Part shown: positions 32,156-40,758 of the stretch, piece after piece
Layout of the letters: each line of letters opens with the position of its first letter
Numbering within the stretch: position 1 is the first letter of the stretch
The notes under the pieces: generated by a model
The model's database searches: none
The model's input: the letters and a program-made list of their open reading frames with translations, nothing else
Told to the model about the DNA's origin: nothing
Source of the DNA: an uncultured Bifidobacteriaceae bacterium
GTDB lineage: Bacteria; Acidobacteriota; Vicinamibacteria; Vicinamibacterales; CAVVIG01
Length of the DNA stretch: 61,958 nt
NCBI GenBank assembly: GCA_964579765.1
Contig: CAZOIK010000267.1
Span: 1-61,958 of the forward strand
Reading direction: 5' to 3'
Program-made: the position numbers and the translations under genes

Positions 32156-32654
32156 TTGGAGAAGGCGCGCGTTTTGGGGGTGGTTTGCCCGCGAAGAATT
32201 GGGTCGGAGCCGTCAGTGACTGTAGCGTGGTTGGAGAACGACAATTCCTACACCTGACTATCGAACGATCATTTGGGCATCGAGTGAAATGTCGCTGCTC
32301 GAAGCGCAGAATGTGGCGGGGTTACACGCACTTCCGACACTCAGCTCGTGGTTGCCGCGCGATTATCGATCACTCGAGTTGTGACAGCTTCGGCCCTTCG
32401 TCGCGTGTGAGCTCAACGTTAGTATCGGGTCAGATTGGAAATGGACTGTGCAGGTTACTACTCGAAAACGCCGATACGTTTAGGAATCGTACGCACCGCG
32501 ATTCTCGGTGGGACCAGTCCCCCAGTCCGTTTTTGCGCGTTTTTCAGCGCATGTCACCTCGCGCCAGCCCATTCGAAAACCCGTGTGAATGTTGATAGTT
32601 TTCGCGCTCTGGCTGTTTCACGCGCGTTCACGACCATCCACCCTACACCGCGAT

Positions 32655-32676
32655 TGTGTTACCACTGTGTTACCAC
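32655..32676. repeat. perfect tandem duplication of the 11-mer TGTGTTACCAC
   Basis: Read directly: tgtgttaccac tgtgttaccac. Confidence 0.85.
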
Positions 32677-32687
32677 AGAACAGCCGG

Positions 32688-32752
32688 TCAAAGGGTCGGA
32701 TCGGCGCACCTGAGTGTCATTCAGAGGGTCGTGAGGCACAGTCAGAGGGTCG
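32688..32752. repeat. three direct iteron-like repeats TCARAGGGTCG
   Basis: Copies at 32688 (tcaaagggtcgg), 32721 (tcagagggtcgt) and 32742 (tcagagggtcgg), spaced 33 and 21 bp. Confidence 0.75.
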
Positions 32753-32878
32753 GGACATCGCCGCGGTGGGCGCCGGCGAAACGGACCGCGAGATCGGCGG
32801 ACGCCGCGGACCTTCATCAGTTCCTCGATCTTATTTTTGAGGATGATCGGCTCAATGTTTATGCGGGTAAACTCGAAG

Positions 32879-32929
32879 TGCGCCCACCAGCTGCGCCCAC
32901 CACTATGGGCCGATCTAGGAGATCGGGCC
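32879..32929. repeat. direct repeat TGCGCCCACCA x2 followed by the palindrome GGCCGATCT-AGG-AGATCGGGCC
   Basis: Read directly: repeats at 32879-32889 and 32892-32902, palindrome at 32908-32929. Confidence 0.65.
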
Positions 32930-33110
32930 AACGTGGAAGGCCCTTGGCGGCGTCTGGGTCGTGGCCCGCAATACGCTGGGGCGCCGGCACCCTTAGGTCC
33001 TGTTGGCGAGCAGCCCGAGTCGTGCGAGGAAGGCGAGACGATCTCCAGTGGCGAGCGGTAGACTGGCGGGCATCTACCGCCACCGTGAACCCTGAGTCTT
33101 CGAAGGACCT

Positions 33111-36212: not shown

Positions 36213-36734
36213 TCACGTGAGGGTGAACGCTGAGCGGATCGGGTCCCACTCGGCGGTTACAACTGGTATTGGTCGCTCCCTTCTGCTCGCCATCTCTCTG
36301 ACGCGTTGTGCGTTCTCTTTCGTCATGTCCTCGCCCAGGATCACGCGCGTCAACAAGTCTGGGCCTACGTCAAAGGCAGGACCGCCCTGCCGCCGCGCAA
36401 GGACCAAGCGGAGTTCTTCCTCGTTGCTCCACTCTGGATATTTGTAGAAAAACCACGACGAAGATGTCGCGTTCGAGAGGTCGGTGAGATCATAGGCCGG
36501 TGGTCGTTCGTAAACGACGTCACGAACGTCTACGAACAATCCTGTCCTGGCGAATTCGAGGCAATAGCCCGTCTGCCGTGCGGCGTACCACTCCCACATT
36601 GACAGATTGTCCCAGCGTTTAGACAGGCAGTAGATATGGTGATTCTGTGTCTTCTCGTGCCAGCCTATCGTCGCCATCTCGTAAATCTTCGGCGCGCCGA
36701 TATCAGCAACTATTTCGTCCAAGTCGAACGACAT
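36213..36734 (-). CDS. DUF2971-like protein (short, lacks the usual N-terminal region)
   Basis: Last 173 aa of track ORF 36213..37187. IYCLSKRWDNLSMWEWYAARQTGYCLEF ... FFYKYPEWSNEEELRLV matches my memory of the DUF2971 core. Its ATG overlaps the upstream TGA (TGATG). Confidence 0.65.
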   Translation of the reverse strand: MSFDLDEIVADIGAPKIYEMATIGWHEKTQNHHIYCLSKRWDNLSMWEWYAARQTGYCLEFARTGLFVDVRDVVYERPPAYDLTDLSNATSSSWFFYKYPEWSNEEELRLVLARRQGGPAFDVGPDLLTRVILGEDMTKENAQRVREMASRRERPIPVVTAEWDPIRSAFTLT

Positions 36735-38725
36735 CACAACGCTCCGGCCGCGACCTGGTCGAAGTACGACACCTGCGGCCCGAGGTAGTACGGTTTGAGA
36801 TAGCACCGCGTCGGCGGCAGCGGATTGAAGCCATCGTACGGCAGGACAATCGCCTGCGCGTTCTGCAGTTCGGTGAACGCCTTCGGCTGGAACACGTAGT
36901 CGAGCGACAGGCTGTACGTCTTGGCAGCACTGACGGTGGTCCGGTGCGCCGCCGGGCGGCCGGTCAGCATGCTCACGCGCGCATCCTGCCCCGCCTCGGT
37001 CAGGGCATAGCTCGGTTTGAGACGCTCCGCCTTCCCGCACAGCTCCGCGGCGATGTGCGCGCTGAAGTCGTCGGAGAGGGCCAGGAAGATCTTCGTCCGG
37101 AGTCCTTGGAGGAGCGTCCGCCACGCCTCGCCTGGCAGCGTTGACCGCAACGAGCTGAGGCTCTGGGTCGCGACGATCGGAATGCATCGCGCCTGCCGCG
37201 CCAGCGAGAAGAACTTCTCATCCCCAGAGGGCTCGTTCTCGCCCGTCGTCGCGAACGCCTGATACTCGTCGCAGACAAAGAAGACCGGGCGCCGGCTGGC
37301 CTCGCTCTGATCGAGCTTTTGGATCCGATTGAGCACCGCGCGCTGAAAGTCCTGCTTCAGCATCGTACCCAGCGCGCGGGCCAGGCCGGGATTCATGGCG
37401 ATCGGAAAATTGAGCGCGATGACCTTGCCCTGTTCGATCAGGTCGGCGATCGGCGGCAGCGACACGCCGTGCCGGCCGTCGTGATTCGCCGTGGCGTCGT
37501 ACGTGTCTTTCGGGGGGCAGAACGTGTGCTTCACGCGTGGGTTGTCGTCGAACAGCGAGAGAAACACGCTGATGCCCTCGACGATGGACGTGCGGAGCTT
37601 CGGCTCCATGCGCATCCAGTCGTCCTCGAACCAGCGCTTCACGGCCTCGAACTGGGCGGTCTTCTCGCGGTCGCGGGCATCAAGGTGCCCGCCCTCCACA
37701 TGGTACGGAATGGTGGCCTCTCTGAGGGACTCCTCGACGTCCCGATCCCAGTGCGTCCACGTGTGCAGCGTATCGTTCGTGACGTGCCAGTCCCAGGCCT
37801 TCAGTACATCGCTGAGCAGGTGCTCCCGTTTGTCCACGACAATGCGCCGGTTGTGCGCGGTGAAGCGCCGCTCCCCGTCCGCGATCTTCGCGCGCAGCTT
37901 GTCCGGGTTGATGACGTGCTCGTACACTTGGAACAAGGTGACGTAGTCGTCGAGCACCTGGTGCAGCAGGATCACGAACGTGACAAGATTCGTGCTCGCC
38001 TGCTGCCAGAACGGTTCCTTGCCGCGGCCAAAGAGATTCGTCATCAACATGGCAATGCCGTACGCCAGGGCGTAGGCATCGAGGTCATTGTGCAGCGGGT
38101 TGTACCGGTACGGGGAGGTAAGGCTAACCTCGATGTAGTCGTCGCCGCGGCCGTACCGCTCGAGCAGCTGCCGGACGTGCGCGCAGAAGTCGCCTTTCAC
38201 TTCGAGCACCAGGCCACCGATCTTCCGCGCAGGCTCGCTCGCGCGATAGCCCACCAGCTGCTCGACATAGGGATACATGCACGCCGAGGTCTTGCCCGTG
38301 CCGATGGCGCCCACGATGATCGTGCCCGTGTAGAGCCCGCGCTCAGGGATCGCCAGCCACCGCGGCTCCGCCGCGGGCAGCGGCGAGATCTGACGGTGCT
38401 GTTCGCCGAGGATCACAAAGAGCGCGTCTCGATCCTGGGGCCGCGGATACGGCGGGAGCGCCGCCTTGGGCACGCGACGATCCGTGCGGGCCACGAAGAT
38501 GTACACGAACGCGCTCACCATCGTGAGTAGCAAGAACGGCGTGCTGAACCACAGGGTCGCGTAGGCGTACACGAACCCGGCGTACACCGTCGGCTGGCTC
38601 GCGTGGATCAACCCGAGGAGCGGCTGCTCGGTGGGGAACGGCCACGCCTGCAGCCCGGCGACGCCAATGACCTCGGCCAGCGCGAGGCTGATGACGAACC
38701 GGTACTCGATCAGGACGCGTGCCAT
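36734..38725 (-). CDS. membrane-anchored type IV coupling protein-like ATPase (TraG/TraD/VirD4 family, FtsK/HerA superfamily)
   Basis: 663 aa. N-terminal TM helices (VISLALAEVIGVAGL, YAGFVYAYATLWFSTPFLLLTMVSAFVYIFV), Walker A IIVGAIGTGKTSACMYPY, Walker B-like RRPVFFVCDEYQAF, and IPIVATQSLSSL. Confidence 0.8.
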   Translation of the reverse strand: MARVLIEYRFVISLALAEVIGVAGLQAWPFPTEQPLLGLIHASQPTVYAGFVYAYATLWFSTPFLLLTMVSAFVYIFVARTDRRVPKAALPPYPRPQDRDALFVILGEQHRQISPLPAAEPRWLAIPERGLYTGTIIVGAIGTGKTSACMYPYVEQLVGYRASEPARKIGGLVLEVKGDFCAHVRQLLERYGRGDDYIEVSLTSPYRYNPLHNDLDAYALAYGIAMLMTNLFGRGKEPFWQQASTNLVTFVILLHQVLDDYVTLFQVYEHVINPDKLRAKIADGERRFTAHNRRIVVDKREHLLSDVLKAWDWHVTNDTLHTWTHWDRDVEESLREATIPYHVEGGHLDARDREKTAQFEAVKRWFEDDWMRMEPKLRTSIVEGISVFLSLFDDNPRVKHTFCPPKDTYDATANHDGRHGVSLPPIADLIEQGKVIALNFPIAMNPGLARALGTMLKQDFQRAVLNRIQKLDQSEASRRPVFFVCDEYQAFATTGENEPSGDEKFFSLARQARCIPIVATQSLSSLRSTLPGEAWRTLLQGLRTKIFLALSDDFSAHIAAELCGKAERLKPSYALTEAGQDARVSMLTGRPAAHRTTVSAAKTYSLSLDYVFQPKAFTELQNAQAIVLPYDGFNPLPPTRCYLKPYYLGPQVSYFDQVAAGAL

Positions 38726-38732
38726 GGGCGCA

Positions 38733-39002
38733 CTACCGCCGGCTCTCGCTCGAGACCGCAGCCGTGGAGGTGGCGTCGCGCCGAGGCGACTTCAGCGCGG
38801 GTTCGTCCGGATGCTCGGCGCGCCACGCGAGGAACTCGCGATCCTTCGCGATCGTGGAGTCGATCAGTTGATTGAGGACGTAATCCGGCGTGTCGCCGAT
38901 GAAGCGCGCATAGAGCATGAGCGCATCACGATCGGGCTCCTGCAGACGAGAAATGTGGCGCACCGATTTGACGCGGTTCGTGCGCGGTTTGATCAGCGGC
39001 AT
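38733..39002 (-). CDS. small 89-aa protein, DUF2274-like (conjugative-element accessory protein pattern)
   Basis: Only the last 89 aa of track ORF 38733..39935. MPLIKPRTNRVKSVRHISRLQEPDRDALMLYARFIGDTPDYVLNQLIDSTIAKDREFLAWR. It ends 7 nt upstream of the T4CP-like start. Confidence 0.5.
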   Translation of the reverse strand: MPLIKPRTNRVKSVRHISRLQEPDRDALMLYARFIGDTPDYVLNQLIDSTIAKDREFLAWRAEHPDEPALKSPRRDATSTAAVSSESRR

Positions 39003-39051: not shown

Positions 39052-39100
39052 CGAGGGGGAAGCCACTCCCACGATGGGGGTGGGGGTCGCTCCCCCCTCG
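39052..39100. promoter_or_regulatory. extended GC-rich stem-loop in the leader/promoter region of the small-protein/T4CP-like operon
   Basis: CGAGGGGGA ag CCACTCCC acgat GGGGGTGG gggtcgc TCCCCCCTCG: nested inverted repeats (outer 9 bp, inner 8 bp with one G-U). Confidence 0.5.
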
Positions 39101-39142: not shown

Positions 39143-39803
39143 TCATGCTACCCCGGGCAACGAGCCGAATTGCTCGTAGGCGAACGGCAACGTCTCCAAC
39201 AGGAGCGTGCTGGTCGAGTCGCCCGTGGGCGACGCGGGGGTCGCCGCGCCGATGCGACCGGTCCGGCACCACTCCGTGTACAGCGCCTGGTGCGCCGGCG
39301 AGTCGAAGCGCTGCCGCAGTTCGCGGTAGCGGCGCAGGTCGACCGGAGACCTGCCCGAGGTCGCCTCGGTCGACGTGCTGCGTCGCTCGAAGTACCACTG
39401 GAGGTCGCGTGCCCTGCTCGGAGCGTCGACGCCACGGACGCGAGGAACCGGTCAAGCACCGCCGGGCCACCGCCGGCGCGACGCTGACGGCGACGATCGT
39501 CCACGTCGGCACGCACCGGAGCAGCGTCGCGTGATCGTGCAGAAACGCCGTGAAGGGATCGGGACTGCCCGTCGGTCGCCAGGTAGACGAAATGCGGCGT
39601 CGGCCGATCCAGCGGCAGAAAGATCGGGAGCTTGTGGACGAAGTGGCGGGCGGTGCTGTCACCGCCATCGGCGGACGCGAACGTCCGCGTCGGCAGCACG
39701 TGCGGCGACACGCTGCACTGCGCGACGAAGAGTTGGACCTTGTCGTGCTCGGTGGCGACCCTGCTTGGCAGCCTACCGTGAGGAGAGCCGACGGCTCGAC
39801 GCG
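39143..39803 (-). pseudogene. multiply frameshifted relic of an unidentified gene
   Basis: Protein-like segments sit in three different minus frames. They are ...HDKVQLFVAQCSVSPHVLPTRTFASADGGDSTARHFVHKLPIFLPLDRPTPHFVYLATDGQ, then PDPFTAFLHDHATLLRCVPTWTIVAVSVAPAV, then VLDRFLASVASTLRAGHA, then LQWYFERR...DLRRYRELRQRFDSPAHQALYTEWCRTGRIG...LLLETLPFAYEQFGSLPGVA*. Confidence 0.5.
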
Positions 39804-39804
39804 A

Positions 39805-40758
39805 TCAACGCACGTAGTGGCCCGAGCGGTAGATTTCGTCGTAGACGAGCGAGACGTTCTCCTGCGCCTTCGAGAGCACGATCGCGTAGCCCGGATACTT
39901 CGCCGTGAGCATCTTCGTGATCTCAGCCGCCACATCGTCCGCCTTCCTGCGCGCTCGAAGGCCTTCCTGCGCGGCCATCACGAAATCGTGGTTCATGCGG
40001 ACGAACTCCTCCAGGTCGGCCCAGGACATCAGCGAGGTGCTATGGCCGGTGATCACCGTGTCGACGCCTTTGATGGTCGCGACGGCCTGCTCCAGCGTAT
40101 GCAAATGTCCGAGAATCGTGCCGCCGTCCGTCGTCATGATGTTCGGGAGCGTCTTGCGCGCGAAGAGATCGGCAAAGTGCGCCGTCCTCGCGGCGGGAAA
40201 CACGACAATCGCGTCACCGCTCGTGTGCGCCGGCCCGAAGTTGTAGAGCTCGACGCGATCCTTGCCGTCGCCGAGCCGCATGCGATCGGTGAAGGTCGTC
40301 TTCGGCAGATAGCGCGTCTTTTCGCCAGACAGGAAGCCGCAGTTGGCGATCGGCTCGCAGACGTCCTTCGACAGGTTCGCGCGCGTGTTCTCCTGCACGA
40401 TGAACCGGACGCCGGCGGAGAATTCCTGATTGCTGCCGGTGTGATCGCGGTGCGTGTGCGTGTTGATGATCGTCGTGACCGGTTTGTCGGTCACAGTTCC
40501 GATCAGTCGCTGGATCTCCGCCCCCCACCCAGGATTCTTCGTGTCGACGAGTACGACGCCATCGCCCGTCACGAAGACGGCAAGATTGCTCGCGCCTGCG
40601 GCGCCGGTCCCCTCGGTGATCCAGTACAGGTTGTCACGCACGCGCTCGATCCGCGCGATCTTTGGCCGTTCCGCGCCTCCGCGTCCCTGCCCGGCCGGAC
40701 GGACGGACAGCACGCCGGCGACGGCGATCACCGCACCCACCACGACTCGTTTGTTCAT
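39805..40758 (-). CDS. exported metallo-beta-lactamase-fold hydrolase
   Basis: Internal Met MNKRVVVGAVIAVAGVLSV with GGAGGC upstream. INTHTHRDHTGSN motif. Confidence 0.8.
   Translation of the reverse strand: MNKRVVVGAVIAVAGVLSVRPAGQGRGGAERPKIARIERVRDNLYWITEGTGAAGASNLAVFVTGDGVVLVDTKNPGWGAEIQRLIGTVTDKPVTTIINTHTHRDHTGSNQEFSAGVRFIVQENTRANLSKDVCEPIANCGFLSGEKTRYLPKTTFTDRMRLGDGKDRVELYNFGPAHTSGDAIVVFPAARTAHFADLFARKTLPNIMTTDGGTILGHLHTLEQAVATIKGVDTVITGHSTSLMSWADLEEFVRMNHDFVMAAQEGLRARRKADDVAAEITKMLTAKYPGYAIVLSKAQENVSLVYDEIYRSGHYVR

Follow-up and report, generated by a model that had tools for sequence, protein, structure and literature searches.

In a 61,958-nt stretch of contig CAZOIK010000267.1 (GenBank assembly GCA_964579765.1), a metagenome-assembled genome (MAG) contig from the Vicinamibacterales, three tightly packed minus-strand open reading frames (ORFs) encode an 89-amino acid (aa) small protein, a 663-aa type IV coupling protein (T4CP) and a 173-aa DUF2971 protein. 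Our analysis, the scope of which was this whole 62-kb stretch (the window), indicates with a probability of about 0.87 that the locus is what decay has left of the 3' end of a VirB/Trb-type type IV secretion system (T4SS) cluster specific to Acidobacteriota, a case of gene decay of an ordinary kind rather than a novel system of three genes. The cluster was probably carried by an integrative conjugative element (ICE). A first-pass annotation of the window had put forward the three ORFs as an undescribed module in which the ATPase is translationally coupled to its neighbors, with the last intact operon of a decayed conjugative element as the fallback; it is essentially the fallback that the evidence shows. 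The layout described there is accurate, including the 7-nt gap between the small-protein and T4CP ORFs, the 1-nt TGATG overlap between the T4CP and 173-aa ORFs, the Walker motifs, and the N-terminal hydrophobic segments of the T4CP.

The genomic context of the T4CP is conserved in relatives. The neighborhoods of three T4CP homologues (85%, 73% and 71% identity) are alike, each holding a VirB/Trb-type operon in the order VirB4, CagX/VirB9, TrbI/VirB10, orf262, TrbL/VirB6, orf45, VirB8, orf98, orf297, orf335, an 89-93-aa protein, T4CP and T2SSE/VirB11 and, downstream, cargo that varies (integrases, or a DUF4365 gene together with a helicase). A wider survey using one genome per species, in which each cluster protein was placed by tblastn, gave 57 loci (fetched relative loci are numbered L001-L064, and database homologues of the DUF2971 ORF carry P numbers such as P0122 and P0127). 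The same gene order was found in every acidobacterial locus with enough flanking sequence, with virB11 directly after the T4CP gene and, in most, the small-protein gene directly before it; VirB2 and VirB3 genes lie ahead of VirB4 in L064. T4CP relatives at 50-85% identity occupy this one fixed operon position, and the small protein is encoded directly 5' of the T4CP in 36 loci representing all clades. Nearby genes for DUF2971, PDC-S06 or orf152 (the last two being neighbors of the operon in the window) were found in none of the 57 loci. The annotation had suggested asking whether the triplet recurs in genomes lacking T4SS genes, and stated that triplets confined to complete conjugative T4SS loci would mark a plain ICE remnant; no such triplet occurs among the 57 loci, and small protein-T4CP pairs recur only inside complete T4SS clusters, where virB11 and never DUF2971 follows. 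One MAG (SMAG_U8798) holds three copies of the T4SS (L008-L010), which argues for a mobile element, and integrases flank some of the intact loci. Other copies have decayed at different breakpoints, L042, L043 and L044 retaining a 5'-truncated T4CP gene plus virB11, and L040 and L054 a damaged T4CP gene with no virB11.

The start of the third ORF records what was lost downstream of the T4CP. Throughout the intact loci examined (7/7) virB11 begins ATG AGC TTC GA(C/T/G), translated as M-S-F-D in six loci but as M-S-F-E in L037, and in three of them (L007, L009, L011) the T4CP stop codon overlaps the virB11 ATG as TGATG, the junction in the other four being TGACATG or TGATCATG. In the window the junction reads TGATG TCG TTC GAC, followed by TTG GAC GAA ATA GTT GCT GAT. 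Homology to T4SS loci in blastn stops at 36723, and DNA homology to full-length DUF2971 genes, represented by three independent loci (L061, L062, L063), starts exactly at 36722; from this base on, the sequence matches internal codons of such genes (…V G Q L D E I V A D…). Judged by its sequence, the 173-aa ORF is therefore best described as a virB11'-'DUF2971 chimera, an artefact of the junction, and we infer that it is without function. Because the third ORF starts with virB11 codons, the TGATG "coupling" is the ancestral T4CP-virB11 junction and not a designed link between an ATPase and an effector, and the proposed translational coupling to DUF2971 falls away with it.

The DUF2971 part of the chimera is a fragment. 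Full-length homologues are 252-268 aa long and share a conserved N-terminus of which the window ORF lacks ~80 residues; a 90%-identical relative, P0127, retains it. The missing residues carry conserved Y, H, N-D and P positions, and in an AlphaFold2 (AF2) model of full-length P0122 (mean predicted confidence, pLDDT, 88) they hold strands 9-14 and 30-32 and the helices up to ~88. The first-pass assignment to DUF2971 is borne out, the 173-aa ORF scoring barely above the Pfam cut-off (22.6 bits vs 22) and matching PADLOC PDC-S31 at E=1.5e-19. The latter match covers only the C-terminal part of the profiles (103-244 of 259 and 116-260 of 273 positions, vs 7-254 of 259 and 20-262 of 273 in full-length homologues). 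The C-terminal 169 residues are 70-79% identical to full-length members and keep the SNEEE and GYCLEF motifs. A literature search on "PDC-S31" found no paper, and a Foldseek search with the P0122 full-length model returned nothing at E<=0.001, the best full-length alignment being a nonsignificant one to DarT (7omw, TMt 0.44, E=1.4). The assignment of DUF2971 as a predicted ADP-ribosyltransferase is drawn from published work (PMC12522546, PMC11381338).

Several other DUF2971 homologues (P0124, P0129, P0137, P0144) are fragments or have unrelated N-termini, and decayed DUF2971 copies appear to be common in metagenomes. A full-length DUF2971 gene was also observed ~5 kb from the virB2-virB3-virB4 end of a T4SS of the same family (L064:1-8768, JBDTVS010000120.1), and a second contig of the same MAG (L054, JBDTVS010000185.1) encodes a T4CP with an internal deletion. 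Because DUF2971 lies near T4SS genes in this MAG, with a damaged T4CP on another contig, DUF2971 seems to be recurrent cargo around these elements.

These observations bear on the proposal that the three genes form a repurposed defense or exclusion module composed of a T4CP-like ATPase, a DUF2971 effector and a small regulator, which we regard as very improbable. DUF2971 does include a validated single-gene antiphage system, Aristaios (PMC11381338), besides the PADLOC candidate PDC-S31, a PDC-S06 gene adjoins the operon, and the fusion is in frame within a tightly packed set of ORFs. However, the triplet is absent from all of the related loci surveyed, full-length homologues of DUF2971 are encoded singly, each gene having an upstream region of its own, in a variety of unrelated mobile contexts, and the window copy is without the conserved N-terminal residues that include core strands. 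Furthermore, both the start codon of the 173-aa ORF and its overlap with the T4CP stop are those of virB11, and the single match of the T4CP in PADLOC is weak (mad8, E=1.3e-5).

Further evidence for decay lies on the 5' side of the small-protein gene. No relaxase, VirB4/VirB11, mating-pair or integrase gene was revealed when the other large ORFs of the window were scanned with Pfam, and tblastn of the window with the T4SS-cluster proteins of relatives found no channel gene; its only matches were to the small protein, the T4CP and parts of orf335. The earlier statement that no other conjugation gene is present in 62 kb is upheld by both searches, but it had overlooked this frameshifted remnant of a T4SS-cluster gene. 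When orf335 from 8 loci was used as tblastn query, residues ~117-186 were placed in frame -3 (39792-39571), residues 191-211 in frame -1 (39554-39495) and residues ~239-336 in frame -2 (39424-39146), three reading frames that therefore require at least two frameshifts. The metallo-beta-lactamase (MBL)-fold gene that borders the remnant is unrelated to the T4SS cluster.

In 26 intact loci belonging to three clades (for example L004:9507-9595, L009:9523-9607 and L018:9616-9687), the interval from orf335 to the small-protein gene contains a long hairpin, located 52-156 nt upstream of the latter gene and enclosing an inner hairpin. Its core arms, AGCGACCCC/GGGGTCGCT or (A/G)(A/G)CGACCC…GGGTCG(C/T)(T/C), are near-invariant, varying in one compensated base pair only, plus one further base in L030, and the outer stem is clade-specific with compensating changes. 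Over 17 arm pairs, 98.5% of cells are paired and eight pairs change on both sides, vs <=50% pairing in slid controls. Treated as single-stranded DNA, the intact hairpins have folding energies of -48 to -52 kcal/mol. The window copy keeps an exact 5' arm, GGGGGAGCGACCCC (39096-39083), and its 3' arm (39069-39056) has 3 mismatches in the core that does not vary across the 26 intact loci; the spacer is ~13 nt vs 40-55 nt, and the fold z-score is -2.6 vs -8 to -9. A search of the hairpin region against Rfam gave no family, only sub-threshold miRNA-like matches. The hairpin could be an origin of transfer (oriT)-type repeat or an operator for the small protein, and a symmetric protein-binding site would yield the same covariation. 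In addition, an iteron-like 12-nt direct repeat (GGCCCCCCTGTC, ~3.5 copies) lies between orf335 and the hairpin in L004 (9324-9365) and also in L005, L007 and L011; these repeats upstream of the hairpin are absent from the window.

The lesions in orf335 and the hairpin also speak to whether the contig was assembled correctly. If the junctions at 36722/36723 and ~39800 were chimeric, the real genome would contain an intact T4SS, and a MAG contig with multi-copy elements does invite misassembly. This is the least probable of the explanations that we weighed: no repeat capable of misleading an assembler is common to the two sides of 36722/36723, lesions of independent origin that no join would make are present in the orf335 remnant and in the hairpin, and the flanking genes on both sides are ordinary chromosomal genes in sequence of continuous composition.

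What remains of the cluster as intact ORFs is the T4CP and the small protein. By domain, motif and anchor criteria, the 663-aa protein is assigned as a VirD4/TraG-type coupling protein. Its matches to Pfam TraG-D_C (32.6 bits, cut-off 22) and TrwB_AAD_bind (30.1 bits, cut-off 20.5) agree with the T4CP-like assignment of the first-pass annotation. Walker A (GAIGTGKTS) is located at residue 139 and Walker B (FFVCDEYQ) at residue 482, and Gly139, Gly142, Gly144, Lys145, Thr146, Asp486 and Glu487 are invariant in an alignment of 14 diverse homologues. Hydropathy alone (Kyte-Doolittle, 19-residue windows >=1.6) delimits hydrophobic segments at residues 4-28 and 56-82 only, a predicted two-segment N-terminal membrane anchor. 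Of 5820 homologues found, the top 120 share 70-85% identity with the window protein, almost all at a length of 660-668 aa, and the named taxa among these 120 are Vicinamibacterales or other Acidobacteria. Phmmer and profile searches of the PDB found no TrwB, VirD4 or other T4CP at E<=0.1, the top profile match being the P-loop of DptH (E=0.014). Of the 274 alignment columns with >=98% conservation, the protein departs from the conserved residue in 3, which places it 20th of 116, and no rate acceleration was detected, relative-rate tests being flat when valid outgroups were used.

The 89-aa protein, for which 921 homologues were found, matches no Pfam family at E<=0.1. It had been called DUF2274-like, but neither the window protein nor 14 homologues match DUF2274 or any other Pfam family, even at E<=5. 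The first ~65 residues are conserved and the tail is variable. The best PDB profile match is weak but covers a whole domain, the ribbon-helix-helix domain of PutA (2jxg, E=0.0055), weakly suggesting that the small protein may be a ribbon-helix-helix DNA-binding accessory protein. The AF2 monomer model has helices at residues 25-35 and 39-63 and no strand (pLDDT 67), and Foldseek returned nothing significant with it.

Because neither the T4CP nor the small protein shows damage or accelerated evolution, the losses of transfer genes look recent; alternatively, the pair may still be in use, two possibilities that the data cannot separate. A retained function would be compatible with the remnant explanation and would add to it: the small protein and T4CP might work as a pair in trans, docking on a T4SS copy elsewhere in the genome for mobilization or substrate recruitment, and be kept by selection for this. 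Two full-length ORFs with conserved sites and no rate acceleration would fit such a role, as would the Shine-Dalgarno-like AGGAG retained upstream of the small-protein gene and the ability of related genomes to hold several T4SS copies, three in SMAG_U8798. Yet a recent deletion equally predicts intact ORFs, the adjacent hairpin is degenerate with its upstream direct repeats gone, no relaxase or oriT partner is visible, and a second T4SS is not seen within 62 kb, making a working pair in trans unlikely, if the best placed of the alternatives. Even less likely, in our estimation, is that selection keeps the orphan pair, possibly together with the chimera, as a channel-less "adaptor" module. Such a module would make use of T4SSs whose genes lie elsewhere, or would serve to deliver or regulate an ADP-ribosyltransferase-like protein in truncated form, and would represent a step in the exaptation of coupling proteins away from their own secretion system.

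The decay of a T4SS cluster would account for the locus as follows. In intact relatives, the T4CP would act as a membrane-anchored hexamer that passes substrate to the VirB channel, with the small protein probably serving as a DNA-binding accessory factor. In the window, one deletion took away everything upstream of about codon 117 of orf335, the leftover of which is frameshifted, and the hairpin is missing its inner part together with the invariant 3'-arm core. By a second rearrangement, virB11 was lost from codon 5 on and its start was joined in frame to about codon 80 of a DUF2971 cargo/defense gene at 36723/36722. The outcome is intact small-protein and T4CP ORFs with no secretion channel in cis, and a 173-aa ORF that borrows the virB11 start codon and its overlap with the T4CP stop. 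Of this, the sequences themselves show the order of genes in relatives, the two breakpoints, the truncation and the decayed hairpin.

A number of points weigh against this account. The T4CP and small protein are undamaged and may still be under selection, and the in-frame fusion retains every invariant residue of the DUF2971 part that it kept. The frameshifts and junctions are read from the sequence of a metagenome-assembled contig alone, and our view is that of a 62-kb window of the source contig. Lastly, no relaxase was recognized in the intact clusters by Pfam searches with orf262, orf98, orf297 and orf335 or by a PDB profile search. For this reason "conjugative" is a term that we infer for the ancestral element, from the T4CP, the nearby integrases and the multiple copies per genome. 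Two conserved proteins of the intact clusters, orf297 (297 aa) and orf335 (335 aa; both encoded, for example, in L001:5486-7374), have no Pfam or PDB match, and the N-terminus of orf335 is strongly conserved (…LTPRQxRFxAxxALHSGYCLRRQY…). Both are obvious candidates for an unrecognized relaxase or relaxosome component.

Table 1. Features of the remnant and of the adjoining region, in window coordinates.
Feature	Position	Strand	Description
Small protein, 89 aa	38733-39002	minus	ORF, intact
Coupling protein (T4CP), 663 aa	36734-38725	minus	ORF, intact
DUF2971 ORF, 173 aa	36213-36734	minus	ORF
virB11, first four codons	36723-36734	minus	ATG TCG TTC GAC (M-S-F-D); includes the TGATG stop/start overlap with the T4CP
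DUF2971/PADLOC PDC-S31-type gene, 3' two-thirds (about codon 80 to stop)	36213-36722	minus	predicted ADP-ribosyltransferase, in-frame fusion
Degenerate hairpin (inverted repeat)	39056-39096	minus	between orf335 remnant and small-protein gene
orf335 pseudogene remnant	39146-39792	minus	5'-truncated, ~116 codons gone; break just 3' of the MBL-fold gene ending at 39805
AAA_13/SMC-like ATPase, 865 aa	33111-35708	plus	PADLOC PDC-S06, E=7e-150, end to end; convergent to the operon
orf152, 152 aa	35742-36200	plus	no family; starts 33 nt past the 865-aa gene
Non-coding stretch, 955 bp	32156-33110		between hybrid kinase gene and PDC-S06 gene; GC 0.59, no convincing ORF

Most of the window appears to be ordinary chromosome. 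The other large ORFs scanned with Pfam are all ordinary chromosomal genes, among them those for Hsp70, Hsp20, a sigma-54 activator, PAS/GAF regulators, BON, a hybrid kinase, MBL-fold hydrolases, PQQ dehydrogenases, TPR proteins and a receptor-like outer-membrane protein with CarboxypepD_reg, and no tRNA gene is present in the window. The GC content at third codon positions (GC3) of the T4CP gene, 0.88, is typical for the window; that of the small-protein gene is 0.81 and that of the DUF2971 fragment 0.68. GC3 is also below that of surrounding genes in the PDC-S06 gene (0.73) and in orf152 (0.76), and the 33.1-36.7 kb beside the remnant form a small islet of defense-type genes with lower GC3. 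The PDC-S06 gene had been described as RloC-like, for which there is just a weak match to a PrrC model (E=2.9e-4). The non-coding stretch preceding it may mark where the inserted islet ends on its far side; tblastx of 32.1-33.15 kb vs all fetched loci detected no similarity. orf152 was considered as a travelling partner of DUF2971 and rejected, there being no orf152 homologue beside DUF2971 in L061-L064. Separately, overall GC is 0.61-0.65 over about 14-37 kb of the window vs 0.67-0.72 on the flanks, a stretch that holds stress and regulatory genes (Hsp70, Hsp20, sigma-54 activator, BON, PAS kinases) and no mobile-element genes. A sigma-70 promoter scan of 35.6-39.9 kb found no site, a result that carries little information in this phylum.

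The locus serves as a caution, in that tight packing and a stop/start overlap mimicked designed coupling and yet are leftovers of deletion, the start of a lost gene now driving a foreign fragment. While the window locus itself adds nothing mechanistic, the comparison brought to light a T4SS family with strong conservation and a wide distribution in Acidobacteriota (Vicinamibacterales, Acidiferrales, Terriglobales), in which the gene order is fixed, no relaxase is recognizable, and the small protein-T4CP genes are preceded by a hairpin with covariation support. To our knowledge, very little is known of gene transfer in soil Acidobacteria, for the study of which this family is a reasonable target.

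Among known systems, DUF2274 proteins of proteobacterial ICEs resemble the small protein in being encoded beside a T4CP, but the Pfam searches above give the small protein no match to that family. DUF2971 proteins are predicted to be DarT-like ADP-ribosyltransferases (PMC12522546), and the member Aristaios protects Lactococcus from phage (PMC11381338). The window ORF shares with the PDC-S31/Aristaios/DarT-like DUF2971 proteins its C-terminal 169 residues with SNEEE and GYCLEF, but has four virB11 codons in place of the ~80 N-terminal residues and their two core strands.

Conjugative elements often lose transfer genes by deletion (Coluzzi et al. 2022, PMC9185392), and the locus resembles pdCONJ-type decayed elements in its partial set of transfer genes left after deletions, with close relatives that are complete and other genomes that are differently decayed. 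Unlike these, it is chromosomal and not on a plasmid, and the pdCONJ definition needs a relaxase, which is not recognizable here. For the T4CP, the comparison is with the VirD4/TraG/TrwB coupling proteins of VirB/Trb-type T4SS clusters in conjugative elements. Even the intact loci have no recognizable relaxase, the channel genes are deleted in the window, and the T4CP has diverged too far for TrwB or VirD4 to be found by profile search of the PDB. Nonetheless, it has in common with them an N-terminal membrane anchor, a P-loop NTPase with Walker A/B motifs, and TraG-D_C and TrwB_AAD_bind domains, and its relatives are encoded in an operon with VirB4, VirB6, VirB8, VirB9, VirB10 and VirB11 homologues that is like those of mating-pair formation type T (MPF-T), a type in whose tree an acidobacterial system has been reported to be basal to the proteobacterial ones (PMC3548315).

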